Below the pieces are notes generated by a model. The model ran no database searches. It was not told where the DNA came from and worked only from the letters and a program-made list of their open reading frames with translations. Positions 44,056-57,820 of a DNA stretch of 64,000 nucleotides are shown piece by piece. The position numbers and the translations under genes were made by a program. Each line of letters begins with the position of its first letter. Position 1 is the first letter of the stretch. Origin of the DNA: Ostrea edulis (lineage: Eukaryota); assembly GCF_947568905.1 (NCBI RefSeq), contig NC_079164.1, positions 74,462,001 through 74,526,000 of the forward strand, in the 5' to 3' direction.

Positions 44056-44944
44056 TTTTTATGCACCCTTCAAAGAAGAGGGGCATATTGCTTTGCACCT
44101 GTCTGTCAGTTGGTTGACCACATGTCCACTCAATATGATGAGAACCATTCACTTGATTGTGATGATATTTCATATATTGGTTGGTTATGAGTAGAAGATG
44201 ACCCCTATTGATTTTGAGGTCACTTGGTCAAGGGTCAAACTGGTCATAGGAAGATACTGTCCACTCAATATCTTTAGAACCCTTTGTTTATTAGACATCA
44301 AACTTGGTACACTGGTACATCCTAAGGAGTAGATGACCCCTATTGATTTTGAGGTCACATGGTCAAAGGTTAAGGGCCAATACACTTTGGACATAGAAAG
44401 ATATTGTTCACACAATATCTTGAGAACCCTTGTGGGTTCACATGGTCAAAGGTCAAACTGGATATAGTATTATATTGTCTCCTATATTTTAAGAATCAAT
44501 TGCTTGATTGACACTAAACTTGGTACACTGGTACATCCTAAGGAGTAGATGACCTCTATTGATTTTGAGGTCACATGGTCAAAGGTTAAGGGCCAATACA
44601 CTTTGGACATAGAAAGATATTGTTCACACAATATCTTGAGAACCCTTGTGGGTTCACATGGTCAAAGGTCAAACTGGATATAGTATTATATTGTCTCCTA
44701 TATTTTAAGAATCAATTGTTTGATTGACACTAAACTTGGTACACTGGTACATCCTAAGGAGTAGATGACCTCTATTGATTTTGAGGTCACATGGTCAAGG
44801 GTCAATCTACTCTGGTCATTGGAAGATATTGTTTGCTCAATATCTTGAATTGTTTTGGCACTACTATCATTTAAATGATACATGTGTATAACCCTTTTAA
44901 ATTCTGCACCAAGGAGGGCTTATATGTTTTACAAACATTTCCTA
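44056..44944 (+). mobile_element. HINE with ~180-bp internal tandem units
   Basis: TTTTTATGCACCCTTC...GAGGGGCATATTG start, repeated GACCCCTATTGATTTTGAGGTCACATGGTCAAAGG units. Confidence 0.75.
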
Positions 44945-46508
44945 TTTTTAGCTCTTCTGAGCCGAAGGCTCAAAGAGCTAATCATATGTCTGGCGTGTGG
45001 TGTGTGTCAACTTTTTGGGAAAAGGGCTATATCTCAAGAACCCCTTGACCAATTTTTGTCAAATTTGTCACAGGGTATCCTTGGCCCAAGGGCTTTCATT
45101 TGTACTAAAACTAGGGTTGTGACCCTTTAACAAGGGGAGATAATTAGGAAAATGCAAACAAAAGTAGTGGTTGCTAAAAAATCTTCTCAAGAACCACTGG
45201 GCAAATTACCACCAAACTTATGCATAAGGATGAGAATAGGTTGTAAATGAAAAATTGTTCAAGGCATCATCTTGGGGCAAAGGGTGTGGTCTCAAGGTCA
45301 CTTCAAAGTTGACCTAAATTTTGTTTTGATAAAACTTTGATATTTTGCTTAGTATACTGACTAGGATCATCAAATTTTGTCAGTTGATGCATCTTAGGAC
45401 CTAATATCATGTTGTCTCAAAAGTAGGTCATCGTGACCTACTTTTTGAATTTCGCAGGTAATTATTATTAAATGGATTTTGATGCATATTTTGGACACTT
45501 TTGAGCCTATGATCATCAAAAGTTGTCAGTTGATGGATCATGGGACCTTGAAGTGCGTCATGTGAAAAGTATGTCACCATGACCTACTTTCTGAATTTCA
45601 TGTCTAATCATTTATGATTACATTTTAGGTTGTTATTTCAGATACCGAGAGGTTTAGAATCATCAAACCTTGTATGTGTCTAGAGGCCTTGAAACATATT
45701 TATAAAAAAAAGTAGGTTACAGTGACCTACTTTTTGAACTTTGCAGACATTCAAATTTCACATTTTCAATTTTAGATGCATATTTTGGACACTATGAAAG
45801 CTAGGATCATCAAACTCTGTCAGTTGATGCATCTTCAGTCTTCATAGTTTGTTGACCAAAAAGTAGGTCACCATGACCTACTTTGGAATTTGACGGCTAT
45901 ATCTTAATATTTCAGATACTATTTGACTTACAATTATCAAACTTTGTCAGTTGATGCATGTTGAGTCTTCAGAGTGTGTTGACTAAAAAGTAGGTCACTG
46001 TGACCTATTTTTGGATTTTGATGGCTATATTTGAATATTTCAGATACTATTTGACTTACAACCATCAAACTTTGTCAGTTGATGGATCTTGAGTCTTCAG
46101 AATGTGTCGACCAAAAGGTAGGTCGCTGTGACCTACTTTTGGAATTTGACGTTTATATCTGAATATTTCAGATACTATTTGACTTCAATTAGCAAACTTT
46201 GTCAGTTAATGCATCTCGAGTCTTTGGAGTGTGTCGACCAAAAAGTAGGTCACTAAGGCCTTCTTTTGGAATTTGACGGCTATATTTGAATACTATTTGA
46301 CTTGTCAGTTGATGCATCTTGAGTCTTCAATGTGTCGACCAAAAGTAGGTCACCGTGACCTACTTTTGGACAGTTACATTTAAATTTTCAGGTACTATTT
46401 GACTTAACATCATCAAACTTTGTTAATTGATGAATCTTGGTTAGTGAGAATTTTTGCCTGTTCTACAATGTTTCAGAAGAGCGATTCTAGGCCCATGGGC
46501 CTCTTGTT
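44945..46508 (+). mobile_element. HINE with an array of ~125-bp tandem repeats
   Basis: TTTTTAGCTCTTCTGAGCCGAAGGCTCAAAGAGCT start and GCGATTCTAGGCCCATGGGCCTCTTGTT end; repeated AAAAGTAGGTCAC-GTGACCTACTTTT palindromic units at ~45400-46440. Confidence 0.85.
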
Positions 46509-46829: not shown

Positions 46830-47456
46830 CCGATTATAAAGTCTCCCAAACGAAGTTGTGGCTTTTTCTGAGTACTAATATTTTTCTCCCTTGACAAAAT
46901 CAATGCCAATTTTTACTTCATTAAAAAAAATCTTGATCACGAAGGCTTTGATTTGAAATTTTTCAAAAAATCTCCATTGTATCTTCAGTAAAACTGGTGT
47001 TGCTAGACTTTGATCCTAGTTTGTAGGTCCCTACATTCTCTTATTATTTTTGATGATCCCTTGTCCCTATCTGTCCTGGTTCTAAAGTTATACAAGTTTT
47101 TATAATCAAGGTCAATTTTGTAGGTCAATACACCCTTTTATCATTTCTGAAGATTCCATGTCTCTATCAGTCCCAGTTCTAAAGTTATACCATACTTGTG
47201 TTTAGGGTCAGAGGTCAAGGTCACTTCACCTTGATACCAATTTGTAGATCCCATCATCCTTTTAGTATTTCTAACAATTCCATCTCTTTACAGATCTAGT
47301 TCTTAAAGTAATGCCAAATTTATTATCGAAGTCATTTGACCTTGATACTGATTTGTAGATCTCATCATTCTTTCATCATTTCTGAGAAGAAGTGGAAAAA
47401 TAATAAGAACCGAGCAAAAACAATAAGTCTTCAAACTTGTTGGGGAGACTTAATTA
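46830..47456. mobile_element. Degenerate HINE-type remnants
   Basis: AAGTCTCCCAAACGAAGTT at the left and AAACTTGTTGGGGAGACTTAAT at the right; GGTCAAGGTCAC cores. Confidence 0.5.
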
Positions 47457-48059: not shown

Positions 48060-48683
48060 GAAATATCTTTAAATCATTTACAATGCTTTTGTATATGGAA
48101 TTAATGCGCGCATCAATTCTTTTAAAGAGAACAACAATTCAATTAAAGATATCATCAATTCAATTGTGGATATGTTGAATTGAAGATATCTTTAACTATT
48201 TAGTTGCTCTAGCTCTCTAAAAGAATTATTGCTCTCTTCAAATGAATTAAAGATATCAATAATTCAATTGAAGAGAGCAATAATTGAATTAATGTGCGCA
48301 TTAAATCAATTATTGCTCTCATCAAATGAATTAATGCGCGCATCAATTCAATTATTGCTCTCATCAATTGATTTAATGCGCGCATTATATCAATTATTGC
48401 TCTCTTCCACTGATTGAATTGTAGTGCGCATCAATTCAATTGTTGATATCATTAATTCATTTGAAGAGATCATTAATTCAATTAAAGCGCGCATAAATTC
48501 AGCTGAAGAATTAATGCCATCATCAATTCAATTAATTCGCGCAATAATTCAGAATTGAAGATACCATTAATTATTTGAAGAGATCTTTAATTCATTTGTT
48601 GCGCGCATCAAATTAATTGATGATATCTTCAAATAATTGAAGATATCTTCAATTATTTGAGTTTATGTTAATTTGGCGCTCCA
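48060..48683. mobile_element. Second, left-truncated copy of the tandem-repeat MITE seen at 5632-7732
   Basis: Same internal repeats and right TIR TATGTTAATTTGGCGCTCCA followed by TA. Confidence 0.8.
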
Positions 48684-49073
48684 TAAATGATTGTAACATA
48701 AATAAACAACGGAAACAATATGATAAAGATGCATGAGCATTTCCATTGATGTCTCTTTACAGGTATCTGAATTTTAATCAATAAATACATGTAACTTAGA
48801 TATAAATACACACAAAAAAAAAGAAAAAAAAAAAAAGAACTCTATCTATATGTATAAAAGAGTTTTTTTTCCTATTTATTTATTGATTAAAATTAATTCA
48901 GATACCTGTGGTCTCTTGTTGACTGGCAACCTATACAATATCATCACTTCTGGCTTATCGATAAGAGTATTTCTTAATTGTACGTGTTGCTTTGGCAAGT
49001 AGAATTAGGAAGCCCCACCCCTCCCACCCTTTTCGACAATTATCATAAATTTTTCCAACGGAAATAAAGGTAT

Positions 49074-49880
49074 TGTAACGTGCCGGGCGTCTACCGTGTG
49101 TCTAGCCTCGTGCCCGGTTCACCCGAGTTTTATTGAACAATGATAAGCCCTATCTGGAGTACAACTAGTTGCAATATATACATATATTATTGACACCTGT
49201 CTGGTGCTTAACGAAATACAACAAGTTAAACAATTTACAAAATATACATATATTCTATACACCTGTCTGGTGTCCTGAACCCCTGGTTATTCAACTGGTC
49301 TTTAATTTAAACAACTTGTCTTGTAAGTCACTGGCCTAACCACTTGCATATGCCAACTGTCTATAGCCACTTGCATGGGCCAGTTGCATATGACACTTGC
49401 CAATTGCCACTTGCATCAGCCAGTTGCAATGCCACTTGATATATAGCCACTTGCCGTATTATGCCAGTTGCATATCAAAAACCCACAGTGCTAATGATTC
49501 TAACACTGGAAATGAGATACGTTTTAACTATAGCTATGTATCTCTTACTCACAAGAGCACCAATGTGATACTGTCAATAACTATCGGCTACTTCTATCAT
49601 TTAGACAACGAACGAACCCTGGATCCAAGTGGCTGCTCACTATATATGTGTTCCAGCATTCACATATTAACAGGCTACAAGACTCTACATACCACAATCT
49701 AATTAGGGGGTTTAAAAAGTCTACCTGACTATCTACATATGCATAACTATTTTTGTTTGTTTTATTCTTTTATGATATTAATTCTTGTTAACTCTTTTTA
49801 ATCAACAGACACATTAATTACAATATTTACAATTATTTTTGATTATACAGTCAAAGGGAGATAATTCACTGTCTGTTTCA
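49074..49880 (-). repeat. 3' LTR (807 bp)
   Basis: Matches 55810-56575 except for 4 substitutions and a 41-bp extra segment containing AATAAA on the element strand. Confidence 0.97.
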
Positions 49881-49893
49881 CTTCCCTCCCCTT
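49881..49893 (-). promoter_or_regulatory. Polypurine tract
   Basis: AAGGGGAGGGAAG on the minus strand, directly abutting the 3' LTR. Confidence 0.92.
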
Positions 49894-49976
49894 AAGAACA
49901 TGCGTCCCGCATGATCTAAGTTACACTACAACTACATGCTCAAACAAATCAACACCATGAAAAAGAGTATTTACAG

Positions 49977-50630
49977 TCACAACATCTTCTCTCTTTTCAC
50001 TGTCACAATCTTGCGACCATGTTCCTTTACAATAGTTGTCGTCTTAATTGATTTAGTGTACAACACAGGGTCGGTTTGAACACCCTTATCTACAGTCTGA
50101 ACTGGAACTGCAACATCACCTATCACATTCTCAAGCCTTGGGGTCTTTGTCCTGCTGGGAGTATAAACAGGCAGTGGCTGTGTTCGTTTTCTTGTGGTTG
50201 CATCCACTACCAGTCGATCGTCTTGATCCTGAGGGCGTTGAGCAGATGAACATTCATCGGCGTTTTTGCTTTCAGTACTTTCTGGCTCCTCTTCAATGGC
50301 TATGTCAGGTTCCTGTGACAACCACTCCTCTTCGTCCGATGATTCTGGTTCATTGGGTTCTTTAGATGAACTTGTCCCACAACTGTCTGAGCATCTACCA
50401 GTTTGCTGGGCACTGCTCTGGTTCCCATCAGGCTGCTCTGCGTGGTTCCTCTTTAGGCGTCGCAAGTAGTTTACTTTCTTGTCTGTTGAATAGTCGCATT
50501 TTTTACAAAAGTATCTTTTCTCATAACATTCCGCCATGTGGTCCTTCCACTCAGAATGAAGTCCCGTCTTGAACGTACAAAATGGACACTTCCTCAGTGG
50601 CTCACCACCAGTTGTTTTGGTTTTCGCCAT
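49977..50630 (-). CDS. Extra retrotransposon ORF3, 217 aa: two zinc-finger-like motifs, acidic region, LC8-type motif
   Basis: CPFC-x12-HMAEC and CKKC-x12-RLKRNH; ESSDEEEW acidic tract; DKGVQTD; polypyrimidine tract plus TAG acceptor 4 nt before the ATG; 37 nt separate the pol stop from the ATG. Confidence 0.8.
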   Translation of the reverse strand: MAKTKTTGGEPLRKCPFCTFKTGLHSEWKDHMAECYEKRYFCKKCDYSTDKKVNYLRRLKRNHAEQPDGNQSSAQQTGRCSDSCGTSSSKEPNEPESSDEEEWLSQEPDIAIEEEPESTESKNADECSSAQRPQDQDDRLVVDATTRKRTQPLPVYTPSRTKTPRLENVIGDVAVPVQTVDKGVQTDPVLYTKSIKTTTIVKEHGRKIVTVKREKML

Positions 50631-50667
50631 TTCCCTACAAAGAGAAAGAAATTGTGTTACACACTGT

Positions 50668-53600
50668 TTACCACTGAACAAAATCACTCAACCATTTAGG
50701 CTGTCTTCTAATTCTTGTACTGCTTGTACAAGTGTCAGTTTCACTTAACACAATGTCATTGTCAACTTGCTGTATCTCAGCTTCCTCACTACCCAAAATA
50801 TCATCATTTAATATCAATTTATCAGAGGGGTCTGCGTCAACCTGGACCTCCTTACTGTTCACTAATTCGCCCCTTAAGACCTGTTTGTGCTTTAGTCTTA
50901 ACCTGTCAACATGTACAACTTGGGGTTTGCCCCGAAGTCCACAGTTAACCTTGTAGGTTAGATCTGTTAACTTGCTGATAATTTTGTAAGGGCCTTGCCA
51001 GTAACTCGTGAACTTTGGTGAACGTCCCACTTTCCGCAGAGGAAAGTAGACATATACGTCATCTCCTGGCTTAAACACTTGCCATGAGAGCTTCTGATCA
51101 TGATATCGCTTTTGTCTCAACATGGCTGTATTTATGTTCTCTCGAACAAACCGATGAGCTTCTTCCAGTGTCTCTTTCAATTGCCAAGCCCACTTGTTAT
51201 GTGGAATGAACTTGACAGACTGCGGCATTTCATACATTAGATCGAGTGGGGTCGAGACCTCTCTGCCAAGCATCATATAATTTGGAGTAAACCCTGTGGT
51301 TTCGTGAACTGATGCTCTATACGCCATCATAACATAGGGCAAGTAGTTGTCCCAGTCTGAGTGATGCTCGTTGACATAGGCACTTAACATCGCGACCAGA
51401 GTCTTATTAAAACGTTCTACCATCCCGTCACTCTGAGGGTGGAAGGGCGTGGTGCGTGTTTTCTTTATATGCAAGACACGACACATCTCAGTGAAGAGTT
51501 CACTCTCGTATTGGCATCCTTGGTCAGAGTGGATACTAGAGGGGACGCCAAATCTGGCAACAACTTCTTCAACAATTATCCTGGCTACTGTTGCAGCTTC
51601 CATGTTGGGCATAGGGAAACTTTCTGTCCACTTGGTGAAGTAGTCAGAAACCACCAAAATATACCGGTTGCCCTTTTCTGTCATTAGAAGTTCCCCAAGG
51701 ATGTCAGTTGCAATCCTGTCCATTGTTATGCCACTCTTGACCAATTTCATAGGCGCCCTCTTCTTCATCTGCGGACCTTTCCTTTTGGCACATTTTTCAC
51801 AACCAGCAATATAAGTTCTTGTGTCAGCCTGCAGACCTGGCCAGTAGTATTTCTGTCGAACGCGTGCCAAAGTCTTAGTTACCCCCAAATGTCCTGCCGT
51901 TTCAACATCATGACAATACTGTAACACTGTTCGGCGTTCACTACACGGCACAACTGCCTGTAGCTGGGAGGATTTACCGGTACCAAGATCAAACTTTCGA
52001 TATAAGATACCATCATCTATAACAAGACTATCCCATTGTGACCAAAGAGACCTTATTACATACCCAAGCCCACTAATGTCATCATATGCAGGTCTCTGTT
52101 TGCTATCCAGCCAACCTTTTACTTGTCTTAAGTCATGATCATCATTTTGTACATCTTTTATCTTGAGACACAGGTCGTCTTTCTCAGTTCCTAATTTGTT
52201 CACATTGACAGAGGTCACTGAATCCACCTTGTGTTTGTCTTGTGCATCTCTTTCCGGCCCCTGGCTTTCCAACACAGGGTCAACCCACATTGTCTACATG
52301 GTATACGGCTTAACGCATCTGCATTTCTATGCTGCGTGCCTGGCCTATGTTGTATTTGAAACTTATAGGCACTCAGGGTTTCTAACCATCTGGCTAGCTG
52401 GCCCTCAGGGTTTTTAAACTTAAACAACCACCTGAGTGAACCGTGGTCACTGCGAATCAAAAACTCTTTTCCATATAAGTAGTGCTTGAAATATTTTACA
52501 AAATGGACCACCGCCAAAAGCTCTTTCCGGGTAACACAGTACCTACGTTCACATTTGGTTAACGTCCTACTAGCATAGGCAATGACAGATTCTTTGCCAC
52601 CAACATTCTGCGACAATACAGCTCCAATTGCTTGGTCACTTGCGTCTGTGTCCAGTATAAACGGTAATGTAAAATCTGGATGGGCAAGTATTGGGGAGTT
52701 AATCAAGTGGCATTTCAACCGTTCAAATGCCTCTTGACATTCTGAAGTCCAAGCAAATGGCTTTCCCTTTTCAGTAAGACGATGTAGACATTTTGCTACT
52801 GCAGAAAAGTCTTTGATAAATCTACGGTAGTATCCGCACAAACCAAGAAATGACCTTAGTTCAGTCACATTGGAGGGTTCTGGCCACTCCTTTACCGCTG
52901 CTATTTTGCTTGGATCTGTAGCTAATCCTTTCTCAGACACAACATGCCCCAGATAGACAACTTGCTTTGCAAACAGGCAACACTTTTTGGCCTTCAGCTT
53001 CAAGTTTGCATTCTTCAACCGCTCAAACACTCTCTTTAAGTTTTCTAACATTTGATCAAATGACTTGCCAGTGACAATAATGTCATCCAAGTACACAAGA
53101 CATATGTCCCATTGCAATCCAGCAAGGACACTTTCCATCAGGCGTTCGAAAGTGGCTGGGGCGCAACTTAAGCCAAACGGCATGACATTGAATTCAAATA
53201 AGCCGCGCCTTGTTGCAAAGGCTGTCTTTGGTTTGTCGTTAGAGTCCATCTCTACTTGCCAGTAGCCTGAGCAAAGGTCTAGCGTTGAAAACCATGCAGA
53301 TCCCAACAACTGGTCAAGTGACTCATCAATCCTCGGAAGAGGATATGCATCCTGTATAGTGCAGCTATTGAGATGCCTATAGTCTACACAGAAGCGGTAT
53401 GAGCCGTCCTTCTTTTTAACCATGACTATTGGCGACGACCATGGGCTGTTTGAGGGTTTGATGACGCCTTTTTCCAACATTTCATCTATGTTTTTGTCAA
53501 CTTCTTCCGTTAGATGTGCTGGTACCCTTCTTGGCTGCTGCTTGATTGGTCGATTGTCCCCTGTATCAATGCGGTGCTTGACAACACCTGTTCGGCCTAA

Positions 53601-55781
53601 GTCCAAGTTGCTCTCGGCAAACAAAGATGCATACTTCAAGAGGAAATCTCTTGCCTTTTCTTTCTGCACCAATGTTAGGTTTTTCTCAGTCTTCTGCAAC
53701 AGTTCAGCTAAATCTGCCCGAAGCTCATTTGAGCACGGAGGCTGTTCCTCTGGCGATGAGGCTTCTACATGATCAATCTCTGACAGTTGTCCTATGACAG
53801 TTCCTGAATGCACAACTTTGGCATCTTCCTCTGTATTCATCAATCTTACTGGAACAGTTTCTCTAGGGCTAACAACTGTTCTTGCTGTCAGTGCACATTC
53901 GTCTCTACTTTTACTGTACATTGGTTCAACAATACTTTCATGCAAGGGTAAGGTAGAACCTTCTGGCACACACACCTTGCCAGGTACAATTATTTCGCTT
54001 CTTGGTGGTATGCTTACTGTTTTGACAGCTGTGATTCGGTAGCATCCAAGGAAGCCTTCTATGGAGAGTCTTTTCTCCCATCCATTAACAACAAGTACCT
54101 CATTGTTAACATCAACCATACAGTGGTGTGCCTTCATAAAATCGAGGCCCAAGATACCATCTATCTTCAGTTTTGCAACAATTGCCTCACTGTAACATGT
54201 CATCTGGTCAATGCAAACGTTAAACTCAGCCTTTCCATGTACCGTCAGTGCAGTACTATTGGCTGTCATTATGGTCTGTGTTACCCCATGTAAGTTAGGT
54301 CTTACAGACATTGGTAACCTCTTGTATAAGCCTTCTGACACTAGAGTAACAGTAGCTCCTGTGTCTACCAGAAATCTTGCTGATTCTCCTTGGATCTTTA
54401 CATCAACATACAATCCACATTCCTCGACTGATGATCCAAGTCCAACCGACACACTTGGCCCGGTTGTAGAGTTCTGATCCCTACTAAACTTGTTTGCACT
54501 GTTTTTACCAGTTGGTCTTTCCTCGTTCTGCCTGTTGTTTAGCAGAGGGCAATATCGTTTGATATGACCTGGCTTCCTGCATTCAAAGCACACTTTCTCC
54601 TGTCTGTTGCTACCTCTTTTGTCCTTATACCATCTGTCACTAGTCACCCTCTGTCTGGATGTTTTTAGCTGCTTCAGCTCCTCTGTAATACATTTCATGC
54701 CTTCCTCTACTGATTTCATCCACGTTCCTAGTTTGTGGTCATTACTTGTGTCAGTTGTCGTGTGTAGCTCTTCAGCTGTGGCTGTTCGCAAATGTCCTCT
54801 GAGCTCTCTGTCGCGCTTTTCAACTCTGTTGTAAGCCTCAAGTTCCACTGCAAGACTAATGGCTTCGTTCAAATTGGCAGGTCTGGACTGCTTGATACGA
54901 ATGCGTATGTCTGAATCGATTAACGCGTCAATAAACTGATCCTTAGCTAAGGTCTCACGAACTTCTCCAGGTGCTGTTGGGTAGGCCAAGTTAGTCAACC
55001 GTCTTATGGCCTGGCCTAACTCTGATAGTGTTTCCAAAGGTCTCTGTCTTCACTCCTTAAGCTGTACTCTGTATAGGTCAGTCTGGTTAGGAGGTGAAAA
55101 CCTTTCCTGTAAGGACCTTACAAGCGTCTGGTAGTGTTGCCCTCTGTCAGTAGGCAAGTCACCTAGTACTGATTGAGCTTGGCCTCGCAGGGATAGAGCC
55201 AAAAACAAGCCCTTTGTCTCTTCATTCCAGCCATTGACACTTGCGCAAGCTTCAAAATGACACTTATAGTCAAGCCATGAACTAGACCCGTCATATGTAG
55301 CTGGTTTGATAGTCACCTTGTTGTTTCTTTCTTCTCTACTTGTCTCAAAGGGTGCTCTCCTTGCATCAATTTCAACAGGATGCTGATGAACTATTGAACT
55401 AGACGACAAATAATCTAAAGGCAAGCCGTGATATTCACCCTCTTTGTGATTACTGGCAAATCTAACCTTTTGCCTTGCTCCGCCATGTGACGAGAACATT
55501 TCAGTGGTTCTGTTATCGCGGTCATGTTGACGACTTTGTTCTCTGTCAGTATGCAATGGGTCACAGTGGCCTGTTATGGTGACACCCTCGTCATAGTCAA
55601 AAGTGTAATCTGAAGGACGTGTGGCATGTCCACTGTCTGGTGAGGGCACTTTACCATAATGACCACTGGTTGGGGTAGACTGGTCAATGCGGTACTTCTT
55701 CAACTTGCTCTCCATCTTATCTAATGTTTCCTTCAGACTGGCATCTACGTACTTCTTGTCTCGGTCACTCATCATGTCCAA
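50668..55781 (-). pseudogene. gag-pol polyprotein with one nonsense codon and one frameshift
   Basis: CCHC knuckle CFECRKPGHIKRYC, protease DTGA, RT YLDD, RNase H DTDAS, integrase HHCC/DDE and GPY. In-frame TGA at 55052-55050; frameshift near 52281 between RNase H and integrase. Confidence 0.95.
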
Positions 55782-55784
55782 TAA

Positions 55785-55803
55785 AATCCCACCGCTGCCA
55801 CCA
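55785..55803 (-). promoter_or_regulatory. Primer-binding site for tRNA-Leu (AAG/TAG type)
   Basis: Plus strand AATCCCACCGCTGCCACCA equals the 3' end plus CCA of eukaryotic tRNA-Leu(AAG/TAG) as I recall it; 6 nt from the 5' LTR. Confidence 0.88.
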
Positions 55804-55809
55804 AAATCT

Positions 55810-56575
55810 TGTAACGTGCCGGGCGTCTACCGTGTGTCTAGGCCCTATCTGGAGTACAACTAGTTGCAATATATACATATATTATTGACACCTGTCTGGT
55901 GCTTAACGAAATACAACAAGTTAAACAATTTACAAAATATACATATATTCTATACACCTGTCTGGTGTCCTGAACCCCTGGTTATTCAACTGGTCTTTAA
56001 TTTAAACAACTTGTCTTGTAAGTCACTGGCCTAACCACTTGCATATGCCAACTGTCTATAGCCACTTGCATGGGCCAGTTGCATTTGACACTTGCCAATT
56101 GCCACTTGCATCAGCCAGTTGCAATGCCACTTGATATATAGCCACTTGCCGTATTATGCCAGTTGCATATCAAAAACCCACAGTGCTATTGATTCTAACA
56201 CTGGAAATGAGATACGTTTTAACTATAGCTATGAATCTCTTACTCACAAGAGCACCAATGTGATACTGTCAATAACTATCGGCTACTTCTATCATTTAGA
56301 CAACGAACGAACCCTAGATCCAAGTGGCTGCTCACTATATATGTGTTCCAGCATTCACATATTAACAGGCTACAAGACTCTACATACCACAATCTAATTA
56401 GGGGGTTTAAAAAGTCTACCTGACTATCTACATATGCATAACTATTTTTGTTTGTTTTATTCTTTTATGATATTAATTCTTGTTAACTCTTTTTAATCAA
56501 CAGACACATTAATTACAATATTTACAATTATTTTTGATTATACAGTCAAAGGGAGATAATTCACTGTCTGTTTCA
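55810..56575 (-). repeat. 5' LTR (766 bp)
   Basis: Lacks the 41-bp AATAAA-containing segment present in the 3' LTR. Confidence 0.97.
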
Positions 56576-57820
56576 GTATATTGCGTGACTGCCTCCCCCC
56601 CCCCCCCCCCCAAAAAAAACCCCCAAACATTTAGCGAAATGAAATACAAGCTCTACCTCCTCAGATTTAAGACAATGAATTCAAGGGGGTGGGTGTTGTT
56701 GATGTAGTTACAAATTACCCGAAGACTATTTAGGATTTTGAAGATCGGGTTAACTCCCTCTTTTTTATTGCTTGTCAATTTTTTTTTTTTTTACCAACTA
56801 ACCCCAATATCTCTTCCGATTGCCCCCATCCCTGAAATACGATACGATATGCCCGTTGGTGTGTCTTTTACTTTGACCTCAAGTATGTTAAACAGATTTA
56901 TGTTATGTCGCCAATGAGACCATGATTGTATTCTATATTCATAATATGATTTAACAGATGCGTTTTTAAATGAGATATTGGACGTGTTATCAATAAAATC
57001 TCTCTGATTTAATGTGTATATATGAATTAGAAATATAAAAAATGAATAGTAGAATACTAAATCGAATCAATGTCGCCTGACTCATGCATCAAGTTCTTAT
57101 CTTCGTAATTCCTTATACAGTAGAAATAGGTTATGGTATTAAAGTATATATGTCATATCATTGGATGTATAGAGTATTACTGTAATCAATATTTTTTAAT
57201 CTTATACTTCGTTGAATTAAAATTTTAACACAATGAATATATGAATCAGTGAATTTCTTTTTTAAAAACTTTAAAATATTCAATTATTTATTGATTCACC
57301 AAGCTGATAAATTCTCGTCCGTTCCAGCCGTTTGAAAAAGAAAATTGAGTGTATGCATATTTATTGGGGGTGTTACATGCGTTGCAAACTTCCTTTGTTT
57401 GAACACTTAAACAGAAATGCTAATTTGGGCTCTTCACACCCACCCCTTGGATGGAAAAACCAAGGTGCACACTTAGTCCACAACTGCTCTCTGAAAATTG
57501 GATCCGCCACTGTACTCTAATCCCGAAACCGACTTCCCCATAATTCAGTTGACGTCACAAAGGAAAAGAAAAACCTAAACAATTATGACGTCACAAATGG
57601 TTTGTTTTGTTTAGATCTACTACCAATACGCCGAACATTACAAGGTAAATATTTTCTAATCTTATATACATGCATATCGTAAAATCTGCTCATGGAATTC
57701 GTTTGTTTACAAGAGTCACTTTCCTAAGTCCCATAGTCCTCTATACCGGTCATCCAAGTATTAGTTAAAAGTATCGATTGATTGTACGATATAATGTTTA
57801 ACCTCCCTTTCGAGAATTTT

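Follow-up and report, generated by a model that had tools for sequence, protein, structure and literature searches.

Extra open reading frames (ORFs) downstream of pol, a spliced nuclear accessory protein in the Cer1 element and histone mimicry by influenza NS1 are already known. Errantiviruses carry env between pol and the 3′ long terminal repeat (LTR) (PMC13524379). Bdelloid LTR elements have conserved non-env ORFs in this place (PMC5408684), and some of the additional ORFs found there in plant elements are described as nuclear and have been proposed to be accessory factors (PMC7264820). The Cer1 protein CERV is described as an accessory protein made from a spliced mRNA, which is nuclear and has a possible Cys finger (PMC10309623). 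Here we analyzed a third ORF (ORF3) of a Ty3/gypsy LTR retrotransposon located on the minus strand of a 64,000 nucleotide stretch of the Ostrea edulis genome (NC_079164.1, positions 74,462,001 to 74,526,000; this whole stretch is called the window, and positions are counted from its first letter). Our preferred reading, to which we give a probability of about 0.5, is that ORF3 encodes a dimeric, nuclear LTR regulator expressed from a spliced RNA; its N-terminus, which resembles the tail of histone H3, would recruit or decoy host readers or writers of that tail and thereby keep the element active. To our knowledge, regulators of host chromatin that are encoded by retrotransposons are poorly known in animals.

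ORF3 (49977..50630) lies between the integrase, whose stop codon is at 50670-50668, and the polypurine tract (PPT). Its coordinates and strand, its length of 217 aa, the two zinc fingers, the acidic tract and the splice acceptor in front of it are as reported in the initial annotation. Genome searches gave at least 134 matches with the window ORF3 and at least 142 with a divergent member as query, and most of the 60 10-kb regions that were fetched are LTR elements with ORF3 immediately after the integrase. Approximately 128 of 150 copies selected by their integrase bear ORF3 sequence, whole or partial (110 were paired by eye with an adjacent ORF3 match, and 18 of the other 40 were recognized with a hidden Markov model). 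Relatives are present in the 22 families examined in the genome. Named relatives, all gene models, come from Saccostrea, Crassostrea/Magallana, Mytilus, Pecten, Mizuhopecten, Argopecten, Ylistrum and Pinctada, and several of the records join integrase or gag-protease sequence to ORF3. Two further ORF3-like proteins are filed under a Thiodiazotropha metagenome-assembled genome and are presumably host carry-over. No named relative outside the bivalves was seen among the relatives found, and a metagenome scan with ORF3 returned 10 loci, every one a short match to the finger region. ORF3 is a clade-wide gene of bivalve Ty3/gypsy elements, and probably an ancestral accessory gene of this clade.

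The ORF3 tree (16 rows) reproduces the groupings of the reverse transcriptase (RT)/RNase H tree (19 rows). Between families, synonymous divergence (dS) has reached saturation in 10 of the 11 ORF3 pairs, with nonsynonymous divergence (dN) of 0.14-0.51 in the motif regions; the single measurable between-family pair has an omega (dN/dS) of 0.27 overall and of 0.08 in the motif regions. ORF3 is conserved under purifying selection. A piece of a host zinc-finger gene that was captured and does nothing for the element (the initial annotation had named a one-off host capture as one of the outcomes that would overturn its proposal) could explain why similarity to many multi-finger proteins is confined to the fingers and why RefSeq labels ORF3-like gene models 'RE1-silencing transcription factor-like' ('REST-like'), 'HIVEP3-like' or 'uncharacterized'. 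The selection, the co-divergence with RT and the conserved splice signals argue against it, no multi-finger host protein with the whole ORF3 architecture was found, and the clade-wide distribution does not fit a one-off capture. This explanation is largely refuted, and we consider it extremely improbable.

The N-terminus of ORF3 (residues 2-10, 50601..50627), which like the LC8-type motif described below had been missed in the initial annotation, resembles the H3 tail. We compared 27 families, with less than 50% identity, to the host H3 taken from the same genome. Counted after the Met, T3 is shared with H3 in 24/27 families, K4 and T6 in 26/27 each, K9 in 18/27, R8 in 15/27 and A1 in 9/27. 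The conserved positions correspond to commonly modified H3 residues, and the match lies at the modifiable residues of the tail. Altogether, 4/9 positions of H3 residues 1-9 are matched in the window family and up to 7/9 in the best families. With a profile of the ORF3 N-termini, 29 of 83,693 9-mers reached the H3 score, and H3 residues 1-9 were the sole one of them that does not belong to ORF3; the score was also reached by 20 of 1,000,000 random 9-mers and by 24 of 22,680 permutations. A search of PDB sequences with the first 40 residues of one family member (L042) returned no H3 chain, only weak finger matches that include TAX1BP1, which makes a ubiquitin-binding role for finger 1 a weak lead. 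Judged from these sequences, it is a tentative suggestion, at somewhat less than even odds, that the clade encodes a true H3-tail mimic whose free N-terminus would be provided by a non-coding LTR exon and which, combined with zinc fingers and an LC8 motif, would serve as a chromatin countermeasure to host silencing.

The N-terminus is followed by finger 1, of the C2HC type (C15, C18, H31, C35; 50526..50588), and finger 2, of the C2H2 type (50442..50507), in which one metal-ligand position is Arg. The altered codon for the first His of finger 2, pointed out in the initial annotation, is private to the window copy: the four sibling copies that were checked and four sequencing runs have His. In C2H2 fingers, positions -1, +3 and +6 are the typical base contacts; finger 2 has K/R at -1 in 25/27 families, N at +3 in 17/27 and R at +6 in 24/27, and ORF3 might bind the DNA of its own element through this finger. 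Further downstream are the acidic tract with a conserved W-x-x-Q/E-D-P motif (50268..50360, limits approximate) and a conserved R-K-x-T-x-P motif (50175..50192; 26/27 families by a loose pattern). The basic RKR patch reported in the initial annotation is present, and is better seen as part of this second motif. In the structure model (mean pLDDT 72, pTM 0.30) the helices of the two fingers are confident, the long middle part is disordered and the chain ends in a beta hairpin, predicted at 49983..50054. Pfam gave only a sub-threshold C2H2 match (zf-H2C2_5, E 0.0011). Foldseek found nothing at E 0.001 or better, the nearest solved folds being C2H2 finger proteins with weak E values of at least 0.013, and the ESM Atlas search yielded only generic C2H2 or unnamed clusters. 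The 19-residue hydropathy maximum is 0.41 in the window family and at most 0.77 in 36/38 aligned relatives (1.24 and 1.72 in the other two). With hydropathy this low ORF3 has no transmembrane segment, and with its zinc-finger fold in place of a fusogen fold it is not an env, as had been proposed.

Near the C-terminus is a motif of the LC8/dynein-light-chain type (DKGVQTDP, 50067..50090), a candidate site by sequence. Such an xQT motif was found in 24/27 families, compared with a mean of 4.8 and a maximum of 12 in shuffled sequences. The TQT-type anchor is situated in a disordered stretch, which makes ORF3 a predicted LC8 client. Similar LC8 sites, NAATQTE and DAGTQVR, occur in Panoramix, a silencing factor that is dimerized by LC8 (PMC7919418). 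A complex prediction for LC8 and the ORF3 C-terminus scored 0.80, while the control with an unrelated partner scored 0.74. We suggest that ORF3 would be dimerized by this motif together with the C-terminal hairpin. As a side observation, an intronless LC8 gene (L099, G000:C34:2271-5522) is present on a separate high-numbered contig and an intron-split match on C4; L099 is either a retrocopy or lies on a foreign contig.

The xQT motif, together with a T-P site in the N-terminus of 11/27 families, could also belong to a trafficking or tethering factor, which rides with particles or the pre-integration complex and uses LC8/dynein and a basic N-terminus phosphorylated in the cell cycle to enter the nucleus or dock on chromatin; the resemblance to H3 would then be incidental. 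LC8 is, however, described as a dimerization hub (PMC7919418), conservation at P7 is far below that at T3, K4 and T6, and ORF3 is located outside gag-pol with no evident packaging route. We regard such a role as unlikely.

The acceptor upstream of ORF3 consists of a polypyrimidine tract and AG (50635..50651) with the sequence TTTCTTTCTCTTTGTAG|GGAA-ATG, so that exon 2 starts at 50634. An acceptor, defined as YAG at most 12 nt from the ATG and preceded by at least 10/14 pyrimidines, is present before the ORF3 ATG in 20/22 families but only before 72/3273 other ATGs in the same loci. This is beyond chance and bears out the acceptor conservation that the initial annotation had proposed as a check. 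We also searched integrated copies for deletions that would be fossils of splicing (13 copies and four more, one of which is the same place as L086), mapping those for which a parent copy was available, and located eight distinct deletion events, seven of them to the base. Three independent ones are an exact GT-AG intron ending at the predicted acceptor, in families other than that of the window, with the donors GAG|GTAAAC (L071/L016), CTG|GTAGGT (L086) and ACG|GTAATA (L128) and only 4, 2 and 1 nt of shared sequence at the junctions, respectively. The other five are non-canonical, yet they lie within approximately 110 nt of the ORF3 start. The exact junctions are fossil evidence of splicing, and the acceptor has been used in three other families. 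Four sequencing runs on the window showed flat depth, an LTR excess and no joint at 50634, a DNA-like pattern that is uninformative on splicing.

The part of the initial annotation that proposed spliced expression therefore stands with regard to the acceptor; its candidate donor early in gag, ATG|GTAAAG, does not. We judged that site unlikely, with a score of 1.1 and acceptor-to-ATG offsets that range from 0 to 9 nt across families and include all three phases. The three fossil donors, each at its own position in pol, are probably cryptic sites. A TATA-proximal donor in the LTR (score of at least 1.7, 55-115 nt after the TATA box) was found in 13/17 families compared with 2.8 expected, a total reached in none of 100,000 resamplings (one family without a usable TATA was excluded). 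The true donor is likely located there, 60-110 nt past the TATA box, with a non-coding exon 1, which fits better because the offsets cover all phases and the TATA-proximal donor recurs. In 15/17 families there is no ATG from TATA+25 to the donor; with the offsets spanning all phases, this suggests that ORF3 starts at its own Met. In the window the predicted donor is CTT|GTGAGT (56242..56250, intron start at 56247), 96 nt 3′ of a TATA-like box (56335..56343, chosen by pattern and by eye) in the 5′ LTR. Since an LTR donor is upstream of the primer-binding site (PBS), the normal spliced mRNA could not be retrotransposed, and this would fit the finding that only fossils with cryptic donors were seen. 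The major splice donor of foamy viruses is also located upstream of the PBS. The M. gigas model K1PPV6 (P0205), a gene model only, joins LTR-like sequence to ORF3, farther downstream than the predicted donor. A U5 hairpin followed by [TC]ACG was set aside as donor, with GC variants, a weak context and presence in 9/21 loci.

Any element that has a strong acceptor needs to export RNA in which the intron is retained, and ORF3 might be the factor that does so: a Rev- or CERV-like spliced product that binds the unspliced genomic RNA with its fingers and a basic motif and takes it out of the nucleus. Cer1 of C. elegans exports its RNA with CERV (PMC10309623), and the hairpins conserved in U5 and ahead of the PPT might act as binding sites. 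On the other hand, the Pfam, PDB and Atlas searches brought up no domain resembling those of CERV, and in place of an H/M/G domain architecture the ORF3 model has its two fingers, a disordered part and a hairpin. The recognition residues of finger 2 are of the DNA type, and an export role would not account for the H3-like end. In ORF3-deleted copies the acceptor is often gone as well, which speaks neither for nor against export. Altogether, we consider an export factor unlikely.

According to our preferred reading, a transcript from the 5′ LTR would be spliced from the TATA-proximal donor to the acceptor before the ORF3 ATG. The protein would begin at its own Met, exposing the end x-x-T-K-x-T-x-R-K, and would probably be nuclear. 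Dimerized and bound to the DNA of the element, it would engage host H3-tail readers or writers, as recruiter or decoy, and acting in trans it would keep the LTR active against silencing.

Several observations count against this reading. R2 and Q5 of H3 are matched in 0/27 families, the window's own family is without R8 and K9, and H3 was picked for the comparison after the motif had been seen. Because T6-P7 occurs in the families mentioned above and a full T-P-x-K/R kinase-type site in 8/27, the N-terminal motif could be a phosphosite or a nuclear localization signal. None of the exact fossil junctions among the copies examined belongs to the family of the window, whose candidate LTR donor has a modest score of only 2.4, and for the count of 13/17 the donor window and the TATA sites were chosen post hoc, with scoring frequencies from general knowledge. 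Within families omega ranges from 0.14 to 1.57 in 13 pairs, which have few changes and are non-independent. The expectation that sibling copies keep ORF3 holds for most of the 150 integrase copies, but 22 are without it; most of these share more than 85% identity with families that bear ORF3, and in them it is cleanly deleted or truncated. Since most deleted copies arose within such families and the same junction is in some cases shared by two to four copies, ORF3 is dispensable in cis.

That ORF3-deleted copies arose repeatedly and were in part amplified would suit a self-limiting repressor, which recruits silencing enzymes (e.g., of the LSD1 type or the H3K9 machinery) to its own LTR and restrains copy number. 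SNAG-domain repressors employ an N-terminal H3 mimic, and the dimerization of Panoramix by LC8 points in the same direction. The long retention in most copies and in all sampled families is easier to explain for a helper factor, and deleted copies can draw on ORF3 in trans. We therefore hold self-repression to be rather unlikely.

The element itself is a Ty3/gypsy LTR retrotransposon with gag-pol at 50668..55775, in which gag with a CCHC knuckle is followed by PR-RT-RNaseH-IN. It has TG...CA LTRs (5′ LTR, 766 nt, 55810..56575; 3′ LTR, 807 nt, 49074..49880), a PBS (55786..55800) with the sequence TGGCAGCGGTGGGAT, which we take to be of the tRNA-Leu type, a PPT (49881..49893) and a 4-nt target-site duplication, ATAC (49070-49073 and 56576-56579). 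The insertion is young, because the LTRs match at 732/737 nt in the main alignment. The window copy is damaged: gag-pol is broken by a stop at 55050-55052 in gag and a frameshift near 52281 in pol, the 5′ LTR is without approximately 41 nt of U5 that are present in the 3′ LTR and in sibling copies, and finger 2 has the Arg at its ligand position. A 5-bp U5 hairpin, in which base pairs are swapped and which has [TC]AC[GA] after it, was found 24-48 nt before the LTR end in nine of 21 loci besides the window (L031, L034, L035, L037, L039, L041, L042, L044 and L121); the 5′ LTR of the window copy lacks it, having its gap near 55842 at this place. An Rfam scan of 14 elements, this hairpin included, gave no matches, and the hairpin is a candidate cis-element or ORF3 binding site. 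A second hairpin, CATGCG-GGA-CGCATG, lies directly before the PPT (49899..49913); its strict pattern occurs in 8/20 loci and a compensatory CATACG/CGTATG form in two. A 21-nt minisatellite is located approximately 430 nt past the 3′ LTR (48093-48640), and tandem repeat arrays with units of approximately 97-216 nt are at 44133-46451, 47020-47314 and 62189-63370.

Some other copies in the genome have unusual structures. L121 (G000:C1:82645509-82649057) is a mini-element with LTR, PBS, a short gag stub, intact acceptor, ORF3 and LTR; its gag-pol is lost, yet ORF3 and the splice signals are kept. In L016, L071, L086, L051 and L015 internal deletions put ORF3 in frame with upstream gag-protease sequence, resulting in fusion frames. 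The ORF3-deleted derivatives (L158/L174/L175/L181, L163/L164/L168, L167/L170, L143/L171/L172, L144 and L177) include several that were amplified from one junction. At approximately 67-76 Mb of G000:C8, decayed ORF3 copies (e.g., L049) that resemble each other in their stop patterns form a cluster, which has probably spread by segmental duplication.

If ORF3 is a true H3-tail mimic, the retrotransposon itself would encode a means of countering host silencing at the level of chromatin; we did not find anything of this kind described in the literature searched, where histone mimics come from viruses and parasites. Neither this ORF nor a retrotransposon-borne H3 mimic turned up in that search, whose scope did not include Repbase, subscription papers and bioRxiv supplements, which may describe ORF3. 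With dozens of naturally occurring versions of the candidate mimic in the clade, counter-silencing by retrotransposons becomes directly testable. In addition, the bivalve gene models with REST-like, HIVEP3-like or uncharacterized labels are recast as probable transposon accessory genes, and integrated mis-spliced copies can substitute for RNA data in locating splice sites.

Like the ORF3-bearing elements, MolGy1 and MolGy2 are large multi-family bivalve Gypsy clades, defined on RT/RNase H, and term searches of the texts on them showed no passage on a third ORF (PMC6238403, PMC9679248). The ORF3 clade may be MolGy1 or MolGy2. The small ORFs of MDG1 elements precede gag, and one of them, sORF2, encodes a membrane protein (10.1101/2025.03.14.642691). 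The main text on errantiviruses (PMC13524379) does not contain the terms 'zinc finger' and 'ORF3'. In contrast to ORF3, the non-env ORF3s of bdelloid rotifers are described as encoding a GDSL esterase or a DEDDy exonuclease (PMC5408684) and the additional plant ORFs as env-like or antisense (PMC7264820); zinc fingers together with an H3-like end are not part of either description. CERV has no similarity to ORF3 that we could find; it is 517 aa long, is encoded by five exons that are partly shared with gag, has H/M/G domains and acts in RNA export, and its description includes no H3-like end or LC8 motif (PMC10309623). ORF3 differs from errantivirus env in having neither a transmembrane segment nor a fusogen fold. 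Errantivirus env is expressed from a spliced subgenomic RNA. Foamy viruses and HTLV are true retroviruses with env, and Tas uses an internal promoter; their likeness to ORF3 is one of position, and no homology is claimed. Like ORF3, their regulatory genes, Tas/Bet and Tax/Rex, follow the structural genes and precede the 3′ LTR (PMC7828637). With respect to mimicry, the closest counterpart is NS1 of influenza H3N2; ORF8 of SARS-CoV-2 reportedly has a short H3-tail-like motif as well. The motif of NS1 is equally short and is described as diverting host chromatin factors, but it is C-terminal and belongs to an RNA virus, whereas the putative mimic of ORF3 is encoded by a retrotransposon and forms a free N-terminus whose register is that of H3 residues 1-9 (PMC12937675).
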